DNA from: a virus | Length of the DNA stretch: 14,426 nt | Virus genome (UHGV): UHGV-0061697 | Strand: one strand, 5' to 3' | Notes under the pieces: generated by a model | The model's input: the letters and a program-made list of their open reading frames with translations, nothing else | What the model was told of the DNA's origin: nothing | Databases searched by the model: none | Shown: in pieces, positions 66 to 10,191 of the stretch | Numbering within the stretch: position 1 is the first letter of the stretch | Layout of the letters: each line of letters opens with the position of its first letter | Made by a program: the position numbers and the translations under genes

Positions 66-1979
66 ATGAGCAAAGTAAAAATCGGTGAATTAATAAACTC
101 ACTTGTTAGCGATGTTGAGTCAATAGATAACTCTGACCGTCCTCAAGGGGAAAAAACAAAAAAAATAAAGGCTGTTGCATTAAAATTTAAAAATGCATTA
201 TTTAATGACAAGCGAAAGTTTAGGGGGAAAGGATTAGAAAAAAGAATTACAGCCAACACATTCAATGCCTATATGAGCAGGGCCAGAAAACGGTTTGATG
301 ATAAACTTCATCATAGCTTTGAAAAAAATATACATCGCCTATCTGAAAAGTATCCTTTATATAATGAGGAGCTATTGTCATGGCTTTCTCTACCTGCTGC
401 CGATATTCGCCAGAGAATGTCAGCTTTACAGGCAAAATTAAAATTAATTCTCCCTTTATCAGAAGATTTATCTAATATCAGAATTGGTGATAACAAAAGT
501 CATAATAAGTTATTAAAATTATCAAATAAATATAAAGAGTGGCAATTCGCCATATCTGATTTAACTAGCGATAACTGGAAAGATAAGCGCGATTATTTAT
601 ATAAATTACTACAGCAAGGATCTGCCTTACTTGAGGAGTTGAATCAGCTAAAAGTTAACCATGAGATTCTCTATCATCTTCAACTAAGCCCTGCCGAACG
701 CGCATCTATCCAGCAACGATGGGCGGACGTTCTGCACAATAAGAAACGTAACGTGGTGGTCATTGATTACCCTAAATATATGCAAGCTATTTACGATATT
801 ATAAATAGCCCTGCTACATTAAATAATCTAAACACTCGTTCAGGTATGGCTCCTTTGGCATTTGCACTTGCAGCATTGTCAGGAAGACGAATGATTGAGA
901 TTATGTATCAAGGTACATTTACTGTTTCTGGTAAGTATACCGTTGATTTTTTAGGCCAAGCAAAAAAAAGAACTTCTGATGATATAACCAGAAAAATATA
1001 TACATTATGCGAAGCAAAAACATTTGTTTATTTAATAAATGTACTTCGCTCATGCCCAGCAGCATCTGATTTTGATGATGTCGTTAAAGGTTATGGAGAT
1101 AACGACACACGCTCTGAAAACGGACGGATTAATGCCATATTAGCAAAGGCTTTTAACCCGTGGGTTAAATCATTTTTCAAAGATGACCGCCGTGTTTATA
1201 AAGATAGTCGTGCTATTTATGCCCGTATTGCGTATGAAATGTTTTTCCGCGTAGATCCTCGTTGGAAAAACGTAGATGAGGATGTTTTCTTTATGGAAAT
1301 TTTAGGCCATGACGATGAAAACACTCAATTACACTATAAGCAATTCAAGCTGGCCAACTTCTCAAAGACATGGAGGCCAAATACTGGAAACGAAAATACC
1401 AGGCTGGAAGCATTGCAGCAGCTTGATGACGAAATGCCAGGATTCGCCAGAGGAGATGCCGGGGTTCGTCTGCATAACACAGTTAAGCAGCTGGTAGAGC
1501 AGGACCCCTCTATAAAAATCACGAACAGCACTCTAAGAGCATTCAAATTTAGCCCTACAATGATTAGTCGATACCTGGAATTTGCTGCTGATGCTCTGGG
1601 GCAATTTGTTGGCGAAAATGGACAATGGCAGCTGAAAATAGATTCTCCAGAAATCGTTATGCCTGACGAAGAAGAGCTGGAAGCAATACCTGAACAGACG
1701 GATGAATTATCAGAGGATGACGATCTGGATGACGACGAAATTGAGATAGAGGAAGAGGAAGAGGAAGAGGAAGAGGAAGAGGAAGAGAGCGTAGAAGAAC
1801 AGCAACCGCCCGCGCCTTCTTCACCTGTATCTAAGCCGGTATTTAAGCCCGTGAGAAATATTGGTGATGGCTCATACGTTGTTGAGTTTCATTATAATGG
1901 CCAGAATTATGCTTGGTCCGGCATTGCAAACAGCCCTATATCAGCAATGCAGTTAGCATGGCTGACATATTTCGGATAA
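66..1979 (+). CDS. telN: Protelomerase (telomere resolvase) TelN, 637 aa
   Basis: Full-length ORF from track. N-terminus MSKVKIGELIN...RPQGEKTKKIKA...NALFNDKRKFRGKGLEKRITANTFNAYMSRARKRFDDKLHHSF and the C-terminal half (...RVYKDSRAIYARIAYEMFFRVDPRWKNVDEDVFFMEILGHDDENTQLHYKQFKLANF...) match my memory of phage N15 TelN almost residue for residue. Length is about that of N15 TelN (about 630 aa). GGAG RBS upstream. Identity is from recall, not a database search. Confidence 0.9.
   Translation: MSKVKIGELINSLVSDVESIDNSDRPQGEKTKKIKAVALKFKNALFNDKRKFRGKGLEKRITANTFNAYMSRARKRFDDKLHHSFEKNIHRLSEKYPLYNEELLSWLSLPAADIRQRMSALQAKLKLILPLSEDLSNIRIGDNKSHNKLLKLSNKYKEWQFAISDLTSDNWKDKRDYLYKLLQQGSALLEELNQLKVNHEILYHLQLSPAERASIQQRWADVLHNKKRNVVVIDYPKYMQAIYDIINSPATLNNLNTRSGMAPLAFALAALSGRRMIEIMYQGTFTVSGKYTVDFLGQAKKRTSDDITRKIYTLCEAKTFVYLINVLRSCPAASDFDDVVKGYGDNDTRSENGRINAILAKAFNPWVKSFFKDDRRVYKDSRAIYARIAYEMFFRVDPRWKNVDEDVFFMEILGHDDENTQLHYKQFKLANFSKTWRPNTGNENTRLEALQQLDDEMPGFARGDAGVRLHNTVKQLVEQDPSIKITNSTLRAFKFSPTMISRYLEFAADALGQFVGENGQWQLKIDSPEIVMPDEEELEAIPEQTDELSEDDDLDDDEIEIEEEEEEEEEEEEESVEEQQPPAPSSPVSKPVFKPVRNIGDGSYVVEFHYNGQNYAWSGIANSPISAMQLAWLTYFG
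1749..1787. repeat. Tandem hexanucleotide repeat (GAGGAA)x6 plus partial unit inside telN, encoding a poly-Glu tract (13 E)
   Basis: Directly visible: gaggaa repeated six times from 1749 to 1784, then gag. In frame, so slippage would change tract length by two Glu per unit. Confidence 0.95.
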
Positions 1980-2549: not shown

Positions 2550-2632
2550 ATATGGCGGTAGCCCAGACGGGGGTAGGAATACCGGTAAACGAAGAAACCG
2601 GCCAGCTAAAAGCTGCCCCATCTGAGCCACCA
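2550..2632 (-). ncRNA. Candidate c4/CA-like antisense immunity RNA in the leader of the icd operon (boundaries approximate)
   Basis: About 370 nt of non-coding leader upstream of icd on the minus strand. It contains stable hairpins (CCGGU-N10-ACCGG, CAGCU-UUU-AGCUG), a tRNA-like 5' segment (GGUGGCUCAGAUGG), and an element UUCCUACC complementary to two identical copies of GTTCCTACGC (plus strand 2538-2547 and 2704-2713) that flank it. This arrangement recalls the P4 CI and P1 c4 systems. Ends were not determined. Confidence 0.3.
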
Positions 2633-2796
2633 TAAATTTGGTGTACGCAGATTTTACACACAAAAAAACACGCTGGCGCGTGTTGTGCGCTTCATTTACT
2701 CGGGTTCCTACGCCCGGCTACGGGATTTACCGTAGCGGAGTAAACTTTACCGTCAAAACGACGCGCACGTCAATAATTTGCAAAGACATTTTACCC

Positions 2797-2874: not shown

Positions 2875-3183
2875 TTACTGATTAAGAGATTGGAAATACC
2901 TAACTAACTTACCGGCATCATCACATTTTTCTTTATCTTCGTTCTTAACATAGCCGCGACAAAAGGCTGAATAAAATTTTGCATTTTCAGAAGCAAAAGC
3001 AGCCGTCGAAAGGAGCAGCTCTTTGCATGACTCTTTTGATGCAGCATCGGGATTATTTTTACATGCAAGCTCCGCTGATGAGTTAATAACAGAAATGCTA
3101 TCTTCCTGGGCATAAACCGCAGCAGAAAAGGCAAAACATAAAACAAAAATAAAACTCTTCACTTTATCTCCTGTAACAGTCAT
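2875..3183 (-). CDS. Small secreted Cys-containing protein (about 102 aa, predicted signal peptide)
   Basis: ORF from track. N-terminus MTVTGDKVKSFIFVLCFAFSAAVYA-QEDS has the n/h/c layout of a Sec signal peptide with an AxA-like cleavage site. Mature part has 4 Cys. No lipobox. ATG at 3183 preferred over GTG at 3186. Confidence 0.5.
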   Translation of the reverse strand: MTVTGDKVKSFIFVLCFAFSAAVYAQEDSISVINSSAELACKNNPDAASKESCKELLLSTAAFASENAKFYSAFCRGYVKNEDKEKCDDAGKLVRYFQSLNQ

Positions 3184-3587: not shown

Positions 3588-3914
3588 TTAACCCCACTCA
3601 CCATCAGCAAACAAAGCGTTATACTCTGACAATGGTAGACGGTTGCCCTCGATGTAGAGATTCAGTTCATACTTCGTCTCCGGGTTTTCCTTGTCGGCTC
3701 GTTCCCAACGCTCAGCAGCCTTACGCGCCAATAATTCCACTGCTTTCAGATAATCCTCCGTACGGAACCAGCCAAAGATAAGGCCACGATCTGTTACAGC
3801 CCAGGCGACCTTTTTTTCTTCCTCCTGGATAGCCCTAATGCGTCGTTCGCACTCATCCCGGCAGAACTGCAGCTGACGGTAATCAAGTTTGTCCAAAAAT
3901 GCCGTAGTAGACAT
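3588..3914 (-). CDS. Hypothetical protein, 108 aa
   Basis: ORF from track (MSTTAFLDKLDYRQLQFCRDECERR...). Tightly packed between neighbours on the same strand. No family recognised. Confidence 0.5.
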   Translation of the reverse strand: MSTTAFLDKLDYRQLQFCRDECERRIRAIQEEEKKVAWAVTDRGLIFGWFRTEDYLKAVELLARKAAERWERADKENPETKYELNLYIEGNRLPLSEYNALFADGEWG

Positions 3915-3918
3915 ATTT

Positions 3919-4110
3919 TTACTCCCCGTTCACCGAAAATTCACGATAGAAACGTTTCCACATACGATAAGTCTGCGCAAATTGTTCACCACGAAACATC
4001 GCCTTCCTGGCCTTCATGTTTTCCTTGTGAGACTTTCGGTCTATGAACCAAAACCATTGATGGAACACACAAAGCAAGAGACACAAAGATAATATCCAAT
4101 CATTACCCAT
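3919..4110 (-). CDS. Small hydrophobic/basic protein (63 aa), start overlapping the repA stop
   Basis: Internal ATG of track ORF 3919..4227 (MGNDWILSLCLLLCVFHQWFWFIDRKSHKEN...). The track's longer version would overlap 125 nt of repA. One TM-like segment followed by a basic tail. Could be spurious. Confidence 0.35.
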   Translation of the reverse strand: MGNDWILSLCLLLCVFHQWFWFIDRKSHKENMKARKAMFRGEQFAQTYRMWKRFYREFSVNGE

Positions 4111-7100
4111 AGAAAGCGCCCTGCTCTTCGTAGCTGCATGAGCTATTCCCCGTAATGTATTCACGTAACCGCCGCAGCTCATTGCTGGAAAGGTGATCCA
4201 TGAACTCTGTGAGGTACAGGGATGCAAACGTCATAGCTATGCTGGCTGATGACCATGATGACATAGTGGCCAACTCCTCACTGGAAAGCGCACTCATCGC
4301 CCAGGACTCAGGTACAGCCACTGGCAACACGGCCAAAGCCTCAGAAATTACTGAATGAGGGGCGTTTTGAACCTGCTCGTTTGTGGATCGCGTTTTATCA
4401 TCCATATATATATTGAGATCCAAATCGCGATCCATTTCGATGGCTGTCTTCTCGGCTTTACGCGTTTTTAGGGTTAGGCCATCTTTCTGACGCTGAACAA
4501 GAATATCCAGCATAAATGCCGCTGATTCAGGCTCAACAAAACGCAAGGTTGGACGCTTATCGCCGTCTCTGCCGCGACGTTTACCTGTTTTAAGGCCAAG
4601 AGAGTCGCAAATGTTTTTAAACAACGCTTCCGGCACTTTAGGCTTCCCTTTTGGCGTCATAAAACCACCAATGTGCAGAACGTTATTCAACAGGTCACGG
4701 CGTTCGGCTGTCATGAGGTTATCTCGAGCGAATTTGAGACGCTCCTGAGTCGCCTCGCCGGTCATAGTCTCAGGGTTGATACCGCAGTCGATAAAGTACT
4801 GCCGGAGAGTTGCTGATTTAAGCGCATAGAAACCGCGCGCCCCGACTTCAACAGTAGGAGTAGCTTTTACCTTGTGATCGATTATTCCAGGGAATTTAGT
4901 TTTAAAGACATCATCAGCCTGCTCGCGAGTCATCGCGGTCACTACAAAATATTGCCACTGTCCCGCCTGACGGTATGCGTAGGTAAAATTGATGGCTGCT
5001 TCTTCCCGGTCGTAACGACGAGCTGTTACCTCATCTAAAAGCATTGTTTCATAGCGGCGAACTTTGTCTCGAGCACCATCGAAATAGAATTTCAGCGTGC
5101 CTTCTTCAACCGGTAGTTTCAGTTCGTTTTCAATATCCCAGCGGACAAGTTTTGCCTGTTCTTCAAGCGTCAGCGCGCGTTTTTTTAGCAGTTCTTCACG
5201 CTCTGATTCTTGTGGAGTTTCTGTATTGAGGTGCAGATCCAGTGTCTGTTCCCACACAATATCCCGCGCTTCTTTACGCAGATCTTTACCGATATCATTC
5301 GCAGCATAATCGGTGGCCAGCGGTGATACCTTATAACCGTCGCTGTGCATGATGCAGATCATGTTGCTGGCGTAGTCGTTACGCGCAGTCGCTTCAATTG
5401 CGGCTGCTTTAATTTTCATCCTGGTAAAGTCGGTATTGGCCACCCCCATTGATATACGGTCGCCATCGAAAACGACATCCGTCAGTTCACCGTTCATACC
5501 TGCGGTAGCAAGCAATGCCTGGGCGAATGCTCGTTCTATTTTTTGCGGGTCAGTTTCACGTTTTGCACGAGCTTTATCAAAGCCGATAATAAATTCTTTT
5601 GCTGTACGGTCGCGGCGTAGCATTTGCACTGCGTCGCTGGGTACAACTTCACCACAGAACATGCCGAAATGACGGTCAAAATGTTTTTGCTCAATCGACA
5701 CGCCGGATGAAATAGACGGGCTATAAATCAGGCCGTCGTATTTTTTGACCATCTTTTTCGGTTGATTGGTAAATGCTTCAACTTCTGGCTCTGGTTTGTT
5801 TTTCTGGTTTACACACAGAAATTTCTTACCAGGAAAATGCATTCTCAGGGTGGCTGTCACATCTTCTGCAAAGGTGGAGCTGTCGGTGGCCAACATGATT
5901 TTTTCGCCATCCGATACAGCTTTCACCACCTCGGTCATGATGCGATCTTTTTCTGTATAAAAAACCCGGATTGGCTCACCTGTTTCGCGGTTGCGAACAT
6001 CAACAGGTAATTCAATTACGTGGATCTGCAGCCATGCCGGTAAACCTAGTTCTTCACGGCGTTTCATAGCCAGTTCAGCCAGGTCAACCAGTAGATCGTT
6101 CGCATCAGCATCCACCATGATTGGGTGTTGTTCCGTTCTGGCCAGCGCGTCAATTAGCGTATTGAATACAGCAACCGGGTTTTCCATAGCCCGACCGGAA
6201 AGAACGGCACGTAGCCCTTGCGTGGCCTCGTCAAAGCCAAAATAGTCGTGCTGGCGCATCAACGGTTGCCAGCAGTTTTTAACAATCGAGTTTATGCAGA
6301 TGGTCAGTTTACTGGCGTATGGAGCCATTTCCTGATAGCCAGGGTCCTGATAGTGCAGGATATCGGCTTTTACACCTTTTCCTTCTGTCATCATTTCCCA
6401 CAGGCCACCAATAAGGGAGACACGGTGAGCAACAGAGATACCACGTTCTGAGCTATGCATTAACGGTCGTAACAATCCAGTAGATTTGCCGGAACCCATA
6501 CCAGCACGGACGATGACTATCCCCTGTAGTGATTGCACGTACTTCAGGACATCATCGGTCATTACCGAAGTTTCAAAACGCTTATAGGTGATATGTTGAG
6601 GGCGTTTATTGGGATCAGTTATGCGTTCGCTGAAAGAGCGCGGAGCCTGGGCAATACGGCACTTTTTATTCAGGCGACGGGCAATGTGGTCTTTTACCGT
6701 AGCACGATAGATATTTTCCAGTCCCATTTCACGCAGAACGATGCAGAACATGTTAAATAAATCTGACGGACTGTTAGGAACCGGGCAGGTTAGCATGCCA
6801 ATATCCACCGCTCTCAGCAGCTCTTTGGCAAAAGTACGACGGTTATCCCGCTTAATTGTCTTCAGGCGGTTGAGCGTCAGAGATAGCAAATCAGTACCGG
6901 TTTTCAGGCGGTTTGCTGTTGCAAATAGTTGACGTGCTGTTTCACGAAGTCCACGTAGTTTGTGCAGGTCGTTGAAGTCACTGCACTCCATTTGCGGATC
7001 GTCTTCAAAAGTTGGATAGACGCAGCGGACATCGTTGAATTTCGATAAGATTTCATAGCCAGTCCGCAGGCCGGTATTCCCTTTTCCTTCTGTGGCAGAT

Positions 7101-8098
7101 TTCCGGTCATTATCCAGTGCGCAGGTGATTTTTGCCGCCGGGTACATGTTTACCAGTTGTTCCACAACATGAACCATGTTGTTAGCGGATACAGCGACAA
7201 CCACAGCGTCAAAGCGTTTATCTTTTTTCGTGGCAAGCCAGATGGATGCACCAGTAGCAAAACCTTCTGTAACAGCGATGTTTTGCGCCCCTTTCAGCTC
7301 ACCGATAACAAAGCAGGCACCGACGAAATCGCCGCTGGTTACTGCGCTGGTCTGGTATTTCCCACCTTGTTTGTCGATTCGCTGCCAACCCACAATACGA
7401 CCATCATAACGACCGTCCAGGTGAGCCAGAGGGATAGCCATATATGTGGTTGGCCCCCGGCTCCATTTCGCACTGTCGTGACTGGTCACGCGACGCACAT
7501 CACATGAACTAAAAACGTCACGAATACCTTTTTTAATCGCATATGGCCATGAGCCGTCTTCAGCCTGAGCATGTTCCCACGCGCTGTGGAATGCCAGCCA
7601 TCCCAGCAAACGTTCATGGTCCATTTGGTTGTTTTTCAGGTCATTAATTCGTTTTTGTTCTTCACGGCGACGACGTGCTTCGGCCTGACGTTCTATTCTT
7701 TCCCGTTCTTCTTCCGGTTGTGCGACCACGGTCGCATTATTCCGTTGTTGCTCACGGCGATATTCAGAAAACAGGAAGGAGAAACCGCTCCATGAGCCAG
7801 CATCGCTGCCTTTATGGACGAAGTTAATGAACGGGTAATCAATCCCTTTGCTGTGTTCCAGCCTGGAGTAAATTTCTACGCGTCCTTTCAGGCTCTTTTC
7901 GAGAGCTTCTGGAGATGTTTTATTGTATGAAGAGTAACGCTCAACCCCCCCGCGAGGGTTGAGTTGGATGTTGTCGGAACAGGCAGGCCAGTTGATACCA
8001 GCCATCTGTGCCAGCTCGGTTAGTTCATCCCGTGCTGCTTCAATTAGCGAGAACGGATCGCTGCCAAAGCGATCCGCATAGAAATCGTTTAATGTCAT
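4103..8098 (-). CDS. repA: Replication protein RepA (multidomain primase-helicase, P4 alpha / N15 RepA family), 1331 aa
   Basis: Single 1331-aa ORF; N15 RepA is about 1320 aa. Walker A motif GMGSGKST is present (RAGMGSGKSTGLL). Position between the immA-like operon and cB matches N15 organisation. Recognition is from memory, not search. Confidence 0.88.
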   Translation of the reverse strand: MTLNDFYADRFGSDPFSLIEAARDELTELAQMAGINWPACSDNIQLNPRGGVERYSSYNKTSPEALEKSLKGRVEIYSRLEHSKGIDYPFINFVHKGSDAGSWSGFSFLFSEYRREQQRNNATVVAQPEEERERIERQAEARRRREEQKRINDLKNNQMDHERLLGWLAFHSAWEHAQAEDGSWPYAIKKGIRDVFSSCDVRRVTSHDSAKWSRGPTTYMAIPLAHLDGRYDGRIVGWQRIDKQGGKYQTSAVTSGDFVGACFVIGELKGAQNIAVTEGFATGASIWLATKKDKRFDAVVVAVSANNMVHVVEQLVNMYPAAKITCALDNDRKSATEGKGNTGLRTGYEILSKFNDVRCVYPTFEDDPQMECSDFNDLHKLRGLRETARQLFATANRLKTGTDLLSLTLNRLKTIKRDNRRTFAKELLRAVDIGMLTCPVPNSPSDLFNMFCIVLREMGLENIYRATVKDHIARRLNKKCRIAQAPRSFSERITDPNKRPQHITYKRFETSVMTDDVLKYVQSLQGIVIVRAGMGSGKSTGLLRPLMHSSERGISVAHRVSLIGGLWEMMTEGKGVKADILHYQDPGYQEMAPYASKLTICINSIVKNCWQPLMRQHDYFGFDEATQGLRAVLSGRAMENPVAVFNTLIDALARTEQHPIMVDADANDLLVDLAELAMKRREELGLPAWLQIHVIELPVDVRNRETGEPIRVFYTEKDRIMTEVVKAVSDGEKIMLATDSSTFAEDVTATLRMHFPGKKFLCVNQKNKPEPEVEAFTNQPKKMVKKYDGLIYSPSISSGVSIEQKHFDRHFGMFCGEVVPSDAVQMLRRDRTAKEFIIGFDKARAKRETDPQKIERAFAQALLATAGMNGELTDVVFDGDRISMGVANTDFTRMKIKAAAIEATARNDYASNMICIMHSDGYKVSPLATDYAANDIGKDLRKEARDIVWEQTLDLHLNTETPQESEREELLKKRALTLEEQAKLVRWDIENELKLPVEEGTLKFYFDGARDKVRRYETMLLDEVTARRYDREEAAINFTYAYRQAGQWQYFVVTAMTREQADDVFKTKFPGIIDHKVKATPTVEVGARGFYALKSATLRQYFIDCGINPETMTGEATQERLKFARDNLMTAERRDLLNNVLHIGGFMTPKGKPKVPEALFKNICDSLGLKTGKRRGRDGDKRPTLRFVEPESAAFMLDILVQRQKDGLTLKTRKAEKTAIEMDRDLDLNIYMDDKTRSTNEQVQNAPHSVISEALAVLPVAVPESWAMSALSSEELATMSSWSSASIAMTFASLYLTEFMDHLSSNELRRLREYITGNSSCSYEEQGAFYG
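4384..4434. other. Candidate internal replication-origin element inside the 3' end of repA: 9-bp inverted repeat TGGATCGCG / CGCGATCCA around an AT-rich spacer with (AT)5 and three GATC sites
   Basis: Read directly: tggatcgcg (4384-4392) and cgcgatcca (4426-4434) flank ttttatcatccatatatatattgagatccaaat. N15-type replicons are reported to carry ori within the 3' part of repA (established knowledge). The function here is inferred. Confidence 0.3.
7477..7490. repeat. 14-bp palindromic motif CGTGACTGGTCACG (copy 2 of 3), inside the repA coding sequence
   Basis: Exact 14-mer identical to 13483-13496 and reverse complement of 2797-2810. Confidence 0.5.
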
Positions 8099-8343: not shown

Positions 8344-8940
8344 TCATCTACCCTCAACCATGAATGATTTGATCGTTCCGACTATTTGGTGAACAAATTC
8401 AAGATCGCTTTTCCTGAAGATGGCGCGTTGTGAGTTTGTTCCATCCAGATAGTAATTTTCATCATCAAAACGGGCCAGGCGCTGGATAGTGATATTTCCT
8501 GCAGTATCACGAACCAGAACATCCTCGCCGGGGACCAGTTCCAGCGCAGAATCGACCAGGAGAAAATCGCCTGGCTGATAGTTTCCCTGCGTAAGATTGC
8601 TGATAGTTAACGCATACACAGTATTGCGCTGGCTGATGAATGGCAGGAATCGCTCAGTATTTGGAACCTGTCCCGGCTTCCACTCTTCATCCGGCCCACT
8701 TTCAGTTGTGCCAATAACAGGAATGCGATCAGGGTCATATTCTGTCCCATATAGCACCCAATGCACTGGCTTGCGTAAGCACTTAGCCAGGGCAATACCT
8801 ATCTCCAGTGACGGCATTACGTCGCCACGTTCTAAGTTTTGGACGCCTGCTATAGAGATATCGACAGCCTCAGCAACTTCTCGCAACGTCAGCTTCATCT
8901 CTAAACGGCGTGCTTTCAGTCGTTCGCCTCGTGTTTTCAT
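8344..8940 (-). CDS. cB: Prophage repressor CB (N-terminal HTH, C-terminal LexA/CI-like S24 fold), 198 aa
   Basis: ORF from track. N-terminal HTH LTLREVAEAVDISIAGVQNLERG; C-terminal GDFLLVD...GEDVLVRD...ITIQRL pattern typical of the S24-like domain. Divergent from a cro-like gene across an operator-bearing intergenic region. Confidence 0.85.
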   Translation of the reverse strand: MKTRGERLKARRLEMKLTLREVAEAVDISIAGVQNLERGDVMPSLEIGIALAKCLRKPVHWVLYGTEYDPDRIPVIGTTESGPDEEWKPGQVPNTERFLPFISQRNTVYALTISNLTQGNYQPGDFLLVDSALELVPGEDVLVRDTAGNITIQRLARFDDENYYLDGTNSQRAIFRKSDLEFVHQIVGTIKSFMVEGR

Positions 8941-9945: not shown

Positions 9946-10191
9946 ATGTTCAGGAAACCGTCGAAGCCAGAATTAAGGTATTCGGGGGTAAGAAATGAAT
10001 ATGTTATCTGGTGTCCAACTTGTGGTTACAGGACACGACCAGATAGTAATAAGCAGTCTGTAATTGCCGATTGGTATTTATCAAATCAGCCAGGTAATAA
10101 GCATATAGAAAATCTTTGGATTAAGCGTTACTTGGAAATCAGAGAGGGTGCGACCGTGGTCGCACAAGAAAATGAAAATAACGCCATTTAA
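9946..10191 (+). CDS. Small protein with a single CPxCG zinc-ribbon-like motif (81 aa); weak resemblance to Lar-type restriction alleviation proteins
   Basis: Internal ATG of track ORF 9871..10191, chosen because it starts just after the Q-like stop. Motif VIWCPTCGY...ADWYLSNQ. Only one CxxC pair, so the Lar assignment is tentative. Confidence 0.4.
   Translation: MFRKPSKPELRYSGVRNEYVIWCPTCGYRTRPDSNKQSVIADWYLSNQPGNKHIENLWIKRYLEIREGATVVAQENENNAI

Follow-up and report, generated by a model that had tools for sequence, protein, structure and literature searches.

Where, within the gene of its own initiator, does an N15-like phage-plasmid keep its origin of replication? The viral genome UHGV-0061697 raises this question in the 14,426 nucleotides analysed here, to which we refer as the window. 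Its minus strand carries repA (4103..8098), an open reading frame (ORF) whose domain matches identify a multifunctional initiator of 1331 aa, primase and helicase in one protein. An initial annotation had read the 51 bp at 4384-4434, close to the 3′ end of this gene, as a candidate internal ori of N15 type. On comparison with relatives, we consider it likely that an N15-like telomere phage-plasmid has the core of its plasmid-prophage ori in this element, inside the gene of its own initiator. Homology to repeats annotated in N15, a peak of synonymous constraint and a dyad symmetry kept among relatives all support the earlier reading. The probable origin core of these widespread phage-plasmids, which are found in E. 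coli, Klebsiella, Enterobacter, Salmonella and Yersinia, would be narrowed in this way to about 50 bp that are unannotated in public records.

The element and its local background

The element has the layout that the initial annotation had given it. A perfect 9-bp inverted repeat (left arm 4384-4392, TGGATCGCG; right arm 4426-4434, CGCGATCCA) encloses a spacer of 33 bp (4393-4425) with 79% A+T and an (AT)5 run at 4404-4413; three GATC sites start at 4386, 4417 and 4429; and the whole is embedded in coding sequence, as codons 1222-1238 of the 1331 codons of repA, 279-329 nt upstream of the stop. When one mismatch is tolerated, the arms lengthen to 13 nt (4384-4396 and 4422-4434). The promoter-distal arm (4384..4396, TGGATCGCGTTTT on the plus strand) then holds one outer GATC (4386-4389) and encodes ...K-T-R-S-T on the minus strand, and the promoter-proximal arm (4422..4434, AAATCGCGATCCA on the plus strand) holds the other (4429-4432) and encodes M-D-R-D. 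Between them lies an AT-rich centre (4397..4421), a candidate DNA-unwinding element, with the (AT)5 run and the inner GATC as part of a TGGATC box (4417-4422). The coding strand reads A-TGGATC-GCGATT-TGGATC-TC-AATATATATATGGATGATAAAACGC-GATCCA, that is, two direct TGGATC boxes and one inverted, and no other repeat family was found in 3900-5000.

The inverted repeat is not remarkable by its length. Three perfect repeats of at least 9 bp with spacers of 3-40 bp are present in the window, against 1.89±1.28 in dinucleotide-preserving shuffles of it, and 29% of the shuffles reach three. As the 9-bp repeat alone was not significant, we undertook a comparison with relatives, and it is this comparison, rather than the repeat, that decides in favour of a real element.

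The GATC content and the duplex stability of the element do stand out from their surroundings. GATC is depleted in the window (32 sites, with 55.8±6.9 expected) and in the 46-kb genome of the linear Escherichia phage PhiR46_1, a complete relative 98% identical to the window (115 sites, with about 180 expected). Nevertheless, the 51 bp hold three of the eight TGGATC hexamers of the window, and in PhiR46_1 no other 50-bp stretch holds three GATC sites and no other GATC pair lies 43 bp apart. The three sites fall within 47 bp, whereas the genome as a whole has 2.5 per kb, and no comparable cluster exists in the 46 kb; this is a density well above background, of the kind sought in origins of the Dam/SeqA type. 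The spacer is, furthermore, the least stable 20-bp duplex within repA (-18.4 kcal/mol, for a window mean of -25.9 and a standard deviation (sd) of 2.6).

Conservation among relatives

We gathered repA 3′ ends from phage records and from 68 IMG/VR loci; a scan of genome contigs gave only 2 loci, and it is IMG/VR that provided the diversity. The non-redundant set (DNA identity below 97%) comprises 37 sequences, 42-100% identical to the window in amino acids (aa) over 930 codons; 20 of them form an N15/Klebsiella-type group (clade A) and 17 a PY54-type group (clade B). Third-codon-position identity was scored in 17-codon windows along these 930 codons, the 3′ 2.8 kb of the gene. In both clades, independently, the element is the top window. 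In clade A it reaches 0.86, for a gene mean of 0.53 (sd 0.077) and a next peak of 0.68; in clade B it reaches 0.70, for a gene mean of 0.42 (sd 0.058) and a next peak of 0.56. The amino acid identity at the same place lies under the gene average, at 0.69 vs 0.78 in clade A and 0.54 vs 0.66 in clade B, and the encoded peptide is flanked on one side by poorly conserved columns that are prone to indels and on the other by a conserved C-terminal module.

The full block of raised synonymous-site constraint extends over 4387..4446 on the minus strand (alignment codon columns 857-877); in clade A the per-codon third-position identity is about 0.8-1.0 between sharp edges at approximately these positions, and the clade B peak covers columns 862-876. 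Rare codons are fixed inside it, namely CGA, used for 7 of the 103 Arg codons, and ATA, used for 9 of the 68 Ile codons; the Arg CGA in the promoter-distal arm is invariant in all 20 clade A sequences. The PY54-like sequences read the boxes in another frame, GGA TCx instead of GAT Cxx (TGT GGA TCT vs TTG GAT CTA), and a +1/-1 shift in them brings the common ATATAGATATA core back into register. The third-position peak, the below-average amino acid identity and the frame-shifted boxes together show selection on the DNA and not on the peptide. The element is accordingly under purifying selection at the DNA level, independently of the protein, a trait that is also looked for in an internal origin of the N15/PY54 type.

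What is kept between the clades is a skeleton. The outer GATC sites lie exactly 43 bp apart, start to start, in 37/37 relatives (GATC-N39-GATC), and these are the only GATC positions kept in the entire set, the best one elsewhere in the last 1.3 kb being present in 24 of the 37. Inner sites are lineage-specific, with 0-2 extra per sequence and 2-4 GATC in total, and the spacing patterns run 12/31, 12/18/13, 13/18/12, 6/6/31 or 6/31/6. The spacings of 12, 31 and 43 bp are near whole helical turns, 43 bp corresponding to about four. The 39 bp between the outer sites are 59-72% A+T across relatives. From one clade to the other, conservation is limited to the two outer GATC and, between them, a central TaTA..atat core, and it does not extend to the flanks. 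The family-wide invariant is the GATC pair 43 bp apart together with an AT-rich TATA core; the 9-bp arm as such does not belong to it.

The arms around the outer GATC sites nevertheless stay complementary over about 14 positions while their sequence varies by lineage, as in the pairs GTGGATCGCG / CGCGATCCAC, GGATCGCGATTT / AAATCGCGATCC, TGATCTAACTT / AAGTTAGATCA, CTGATCCAGCTTTTA / TAAAAGCTGGATCAG and TGATCCAGATCTTT / AAAGATCTGGATCA. At six arm positions the pairs are of two or three kinds. Complementary arm cells number 305; displacing the partner by 1-3 columns leaves 136-224, and shuffled columns give 268±9. These covariation counts are inflated by the kinship of the sequences and are to be read as supportive, not as a probability.

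Two more distant replicons extend the pattern. The RepA of Vibrio chagasii plasmid p2 is 28% identical and its gene adjoins a protelomerase; about 270 nt before the repA stop, perfect 9-bp arms (TGATCCACG/CGTGGATCA) enclose a 34-nt AT-rich spacer, and the arms contain GATC, with the sites 46 bp apart. In VP882, 12-nt arms without GATC surround TTATATATACA about 200 nt before the repA stop. Both share the architecture of the element at the same relative position in repA.

Likeness to known origins and proposed function

In phage N15 the ori lies within repA and replication starts there bidirectionally, the N15 RepA being primase, helicase and origin-binding protein (PMC4165912; PMC2847241). Our full-text literature search returned this statement of an ori within repA and no finer mapping. 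The RepA encoded in the window is homologous to N15 gp37, phiKO2 gp35 and PY54 RepA, and the element thus lies in the 3′ part of a primase-helicase gene of the N15 gp37 type, where an internal origin of the N15/PY54 kind is looked for. Base by base, it can be aligned with three 11-bp repeats annotated by the depositors of the N15 repA record U63085; these repeat_regions are two direct TGGATC boxes and an inverted GATCCA, with an AT-rich stretch between them. At the homologous codons N15 reads G-TGGATC-GCGATT-TGGATC-TA-AATATAGATATACATGGTAACCCTC-GATCCA. The codon alignment in this way relates both the repeats and the AT-rich region to those of N15 and PY54 repA.

N15 and the window thus have in common the gene and the position within it, the succession of TGGATC, about 6 nt, TGGATC, an AT-rich core and an inverted GATCCA, and the 43 bp between outer GATC sites. 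They differ in the length of the perfect arms, 7 bp in N15 and 9 bp here, in the core, ATATAGATATAC in N15 and ATATATATATGG here, and in the encoded peptide, and the two RepA proteins are only about 72% identical over the 3′ 930 codons. PY54 shares the GATC-N39-GATC skeleton, the ATATAGATATA core and an equal distance to the repA stop; it differs by having four GATC spaced 13/18/12, arms with one mismatch (GATCTAACTTG / CAAGTTGGATC) and boxes in the other frame. Mardanov and Ravin, in 2006, reportedly placed the N15 origin in the 3′ part of repA, and Ziegelin et al., in 2005, are said to have delimited the PY54 origin to 212 bp in the 3′ portion of its repA and to have found that the N15 and phiKO2 RepA do not act on it. 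This reported lack of action fits the lineage-specific arms. For N15 and PY54 it is established that the origin lies inside repA, and the element is very probably the unannotated orthologue of theirs.

The replicon type agrees with this. A protelomerase gene, telN (66..1979, plus strand), matches Pfam TelK_N, TelK_muzzle, ResT-TelK_cat and TelK_stirrup with E-values of 1e-25 to 1e-50, and cB (8344-8940) encodes a CB/CI-type repressor with helix-turn-helix (HTH) and S24 domains. The presence of the protelomerase marks the element as part of a hairpin-ended linear phage-plasmid of the N15-like kind. Protelomerase, CB-type repressor and Sop/Par centromeres together make up the telomere phage-plasmid context of an N15/PY54-type origin, and all three are found in N15 too, whose centromeres are likewise of Sop type. 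The window shares 98% identity with PhiR46_1 and 95% with YDC107_1, with phiKO2, N15 and PY54 more distant; PhiR46_1 is linear with telL and telR, and the element lies about 4.6 kb from its left telomere. Of 5426 complete E. coli genomes, 17 contain the repA 3′ end sequence, and in every case it is carried by plasmids of about 46 kb. In RepA itself a Toprim domain (Toprim_3, aa 274-383) precedes a match to Pfam Herpes_ori_bp (aa 522-674; 25.2 bits, cut-off 20), a superfamily 2 (SF2) helicase, and the NCBIfam family CyRepA1 is matched at aa 525-1034 with 259 bits. Domain scans recognised no domain in the last 300 residues, and a PDB sequence search with RepA did not find a relative.

Other origins resemble the element in part. 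In phage lambda, initiator-binding repeats lie beside an AT-rich region and the origin is likewise inside the coding sequence of the initiator, gene O, at a stretch encoding a variable linker, much as the element is placed in a part of repA that codes for a poorly conserved linker. The iterons of lambda, however, are direct, 19 bp long and four in number, and its initiator is unrelated and brings in host DnaB via the P protein, whereas the element comprises two inverted boxes and RepA is a self-contained primase-helicase. With only two direct TGGATC boxes, the element is also short of the three or more direct iterons beside an AT-rich region that characterize iteron-type origins. In herpes simplex virus (HSV) oriS, two inverted boxes flank a short AT-rich spacer and the initiator UL9 is an SF2 helicase. 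The boxes around an AT spacer and the Herpes_ori_bp match of RepA recall this system, although the analogy is mechanistic only: HSV is a eukaryotic virus and its origin is intergenic, without GATC and without a primase fusion. E. coli oriC and P1 oriR share a GATC cluster in and around the unwinding region and Dam-positive hosts, but here there are no DnaA boxes and no 13-mer repeats. Indeed, the DnaA box TTATNCACA has no perfect match in the window and 17 matches with one mismatch, for 14.5 expected; the nearest of these, at 4672, is about 240 bp off, so that the element is not DnaA-adjacent as in oriC-type origins. Finally, the cyanobacterial replicon pSYSA has an initiator of the same NCBIfam family, CyRepA1, with primase and helicase domains. 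It differs in that the mapping of its origin function stops at the ssr7036-slr7037 fragment; an upstream transcript has been put forward for priming, and the function has not been attributed to a dyad within a gene (PMC9978351).

No other non-coding signal in that part of repA is under strong constraint, and the inverted boxes of the element around a meltable centre and its lineage-divergent arms fit an origin core with lineage-specific initiator recognition. We propose that RepA would bind the two inverted boxes, here TGGATCG(CG) and its complement, and that the AT-rich centre of about 25-33 bp between them would melt. RepA would then load itself as helicase, with primers laid by its Toprim domain, and host polymerase would replicate both ways, the protelomerase resolving the replicated telomeres. 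The conserved, helically phased GATC sites would probably couple initiation to Dam methylation or SeqA, or could alternatively form the invariant core of the RepA recognition site. Origin function, RepA binding, melting, priming and any methylation role are in this respect predicted from sequence.

Several points weigh against this interpretation. The 9-bp repeat is by itself within chance expectation, and the constraint proves a cis-acting DNA element and not its function. The minimal origins reported in the 3′ part of N15 and PY54 repA may not comprise exactly this element, and a rep_origin feature is absent from the N15, PY54, phiKO2 and other public records that we examined. Judging from the 212 bp reported for PY54, the 51 bp may also be only a core, with RepA sites lying partly outside. 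The cumulative GC skew of PhiR46_1, which follows gene orientation and has its minimum at the cB/cro divergence, says nothing on the origin.

A wider proposition, that the origins of enterobacterial telomere phage-plasmids are gated by adenine methylation, is possible but we hold it as tentative and rather doubtful. Across the 37 N15-, Klebsiella- and PY54-type relatives the GATC pair at its fixed 43 bp is the only invariant arm sequence; the inner GATC sites come and go from lineage to lineage, yet some are almost always present, while the rest of the arms diverges and covaries. The fixed phasing, this turnover with persistence and the occurrence of both in a GATC-poor phage with a methylase of its own suggest either Dam/SeqA-type control or a role of GATC as the invariant core of RepA recognition, two possibilities that are not separable from sequence. 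No description of methylation gating of N15-type replicons was found in the literature searched. If true, the moment of initiation or the number of copies would be tied to Dam and SeqA or to the phage adenine methylase, as in oriC and P1 oriR, and the conserved GATC phasing makes methylation control a directly testable hypothesis. For practical use, we offer a family-wide definition of the putative origin core (GATC-N39-GATC, dyad arms and a TATA-type core), which could serve for replicon annotation, for minimal linear vectors of the pJAZZ type and for sparing the origin when repA is recoded.

Alternative explanations and neighbouring features

We consider it unlikely that the element is instead a protein-binding regulatory site, Dam/SeqA-sensitive or other, that does not start replication and serves RepA autoregulation, handcuffing, incompatibility or the control of downstream genes. 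Such a site could account for GATC being the only arm sequence invariant across clades, for the turnover of inner GATC at kept density and for their presence in a phage that is elsewhere poor in GATC and has an adenine methylase gene. The further inverted repeat with GGATCGC that repA carries at its 5′ end would also fit. This 5′ repeat is, however, imperfect in N15 and phiKO2, and a search of both strands over 3800-4900 gave no sigma-70-like promoter. Moreover, dyad boxes around a least stable AT-rich core are the classical layout of an origin, and the location agrees with the published ori inside repA (PMC2847241; PMC4165912). The scan of 3800-4900 gave two terminator-like matches at 4507-4525, which is chance level.

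A structure in the repA mRNA, a hairpin acting on translation, stability or processing, seems to us improbable. Its dyad symmetry does covary, and single-strand folding of the element beats shuffles on either strand (-11.5 / -12.7 kcal/mol, z = -3.1 / -3.6). But the non-complementary cells on the sense strand divide into 23 G/T vs 37 A/C vs 44 others, without any G-U excess, which speaks for a dyad in the DNA and against a hairpin in the mRNA. Moreover, the "loop", with the TATA core and GATC sites, shows DNA-level conservation of its own, the loop closed by a stem of 7-14 bp would measure about 19-33 nt, and the Rfam scan gave no match at the element.

There is very little to recommend a partition (centromere) site of the Sop/Par system. 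An N15 centromere site has been reported within repA (PMC2847241), but the element shares no sequence with the centromere palindromes. We rejected this reading because the Sop-type (sopC-like) palindromes are located elsewhere: one at 7722-7735 (GCGACCACGGTCGC), which lies in the 5′ part of repA and has a homologue in the "putative plasmid partitioning site" of phiKO2, and the other at 10150-10163 (GCGACCGTGGTCGC). Equally remote is the absence of any cis element, in which a conserved peptide motif (VDRDLDLNI...RS) would coincide with a chance inverted repeat; the chance-level 9-bp repeat and the conservation of parts of the peptide within clade A would allow it, but it is effectively refuted by third-position and synonymous identity that is the highest in 930 codons over a peptide of below-average identity, by the fixed rare CGA and ATA codons, by GATC boxes that persist in a different frame in clade B and by the outer GATC pair in 37/37 relatives.

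The repeat at the 5′ end of repA (8054-8076, codons 8-15) is likewise inverted and perfect over 9 bp (CGGATCGCT / AGCGATCCG), with its arms 5 nt apart. It has a GGATCGC box in common with the arms of the putative origin, and all four copies of this box in the window are found in these two repeats; in N15 and phiKO2 its left arm reads GGAGCGC. The least stable and most AT-rich DNA of the window is located at about 435-620, in the 5′ third of the telN ORF (e.g. AATAAGTTATTAAAATTATCAAATAAATATAAAG around 500-540). The DNA adenine methylase of the phage itself is encoded at 14970-16091 in PhiR46_1.

Between telN and repA, in the leftward operon, Rfam matches a C4 antisense RNA (2551-2637, minus strand, 73.6 bits) and the Hfq-binding RNA isrK (2663-2736, minus strand, 62.5 bits); presumably they represent a small processed RNA controlling an antirepressor, as in N15 and P1. 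Downstream of repA, where several small genes lie, PhiR46_1 has an annotated "Spackle exclusion protein", with its window equivalent at 2875-3162 on the minus strand, and in Klebsiella relatives a toxin-immunity pair has been reported in the matching interval.

During the collection of relatives we noticed that repA occurs twice, in opposite orientation, on single IMG/VR contigs (L021/L022, L039/L042, L044/L045, L036/L060 and L074/L079), and that several PLSDB plasmids of 60-90 kb match at two places. The double opposite copies are as expected if the assembly had read through a hairpin telomere or if the linear plasmids had formed head-to-head dimers. A Klebsiella-type telomere-phage repA (79% identical) is also present on the 52-kb contig NZ_BMZO01000013.1, from an assembly labelled Limoniibacter endophyticus, which could be a contamination or an unexpected host.

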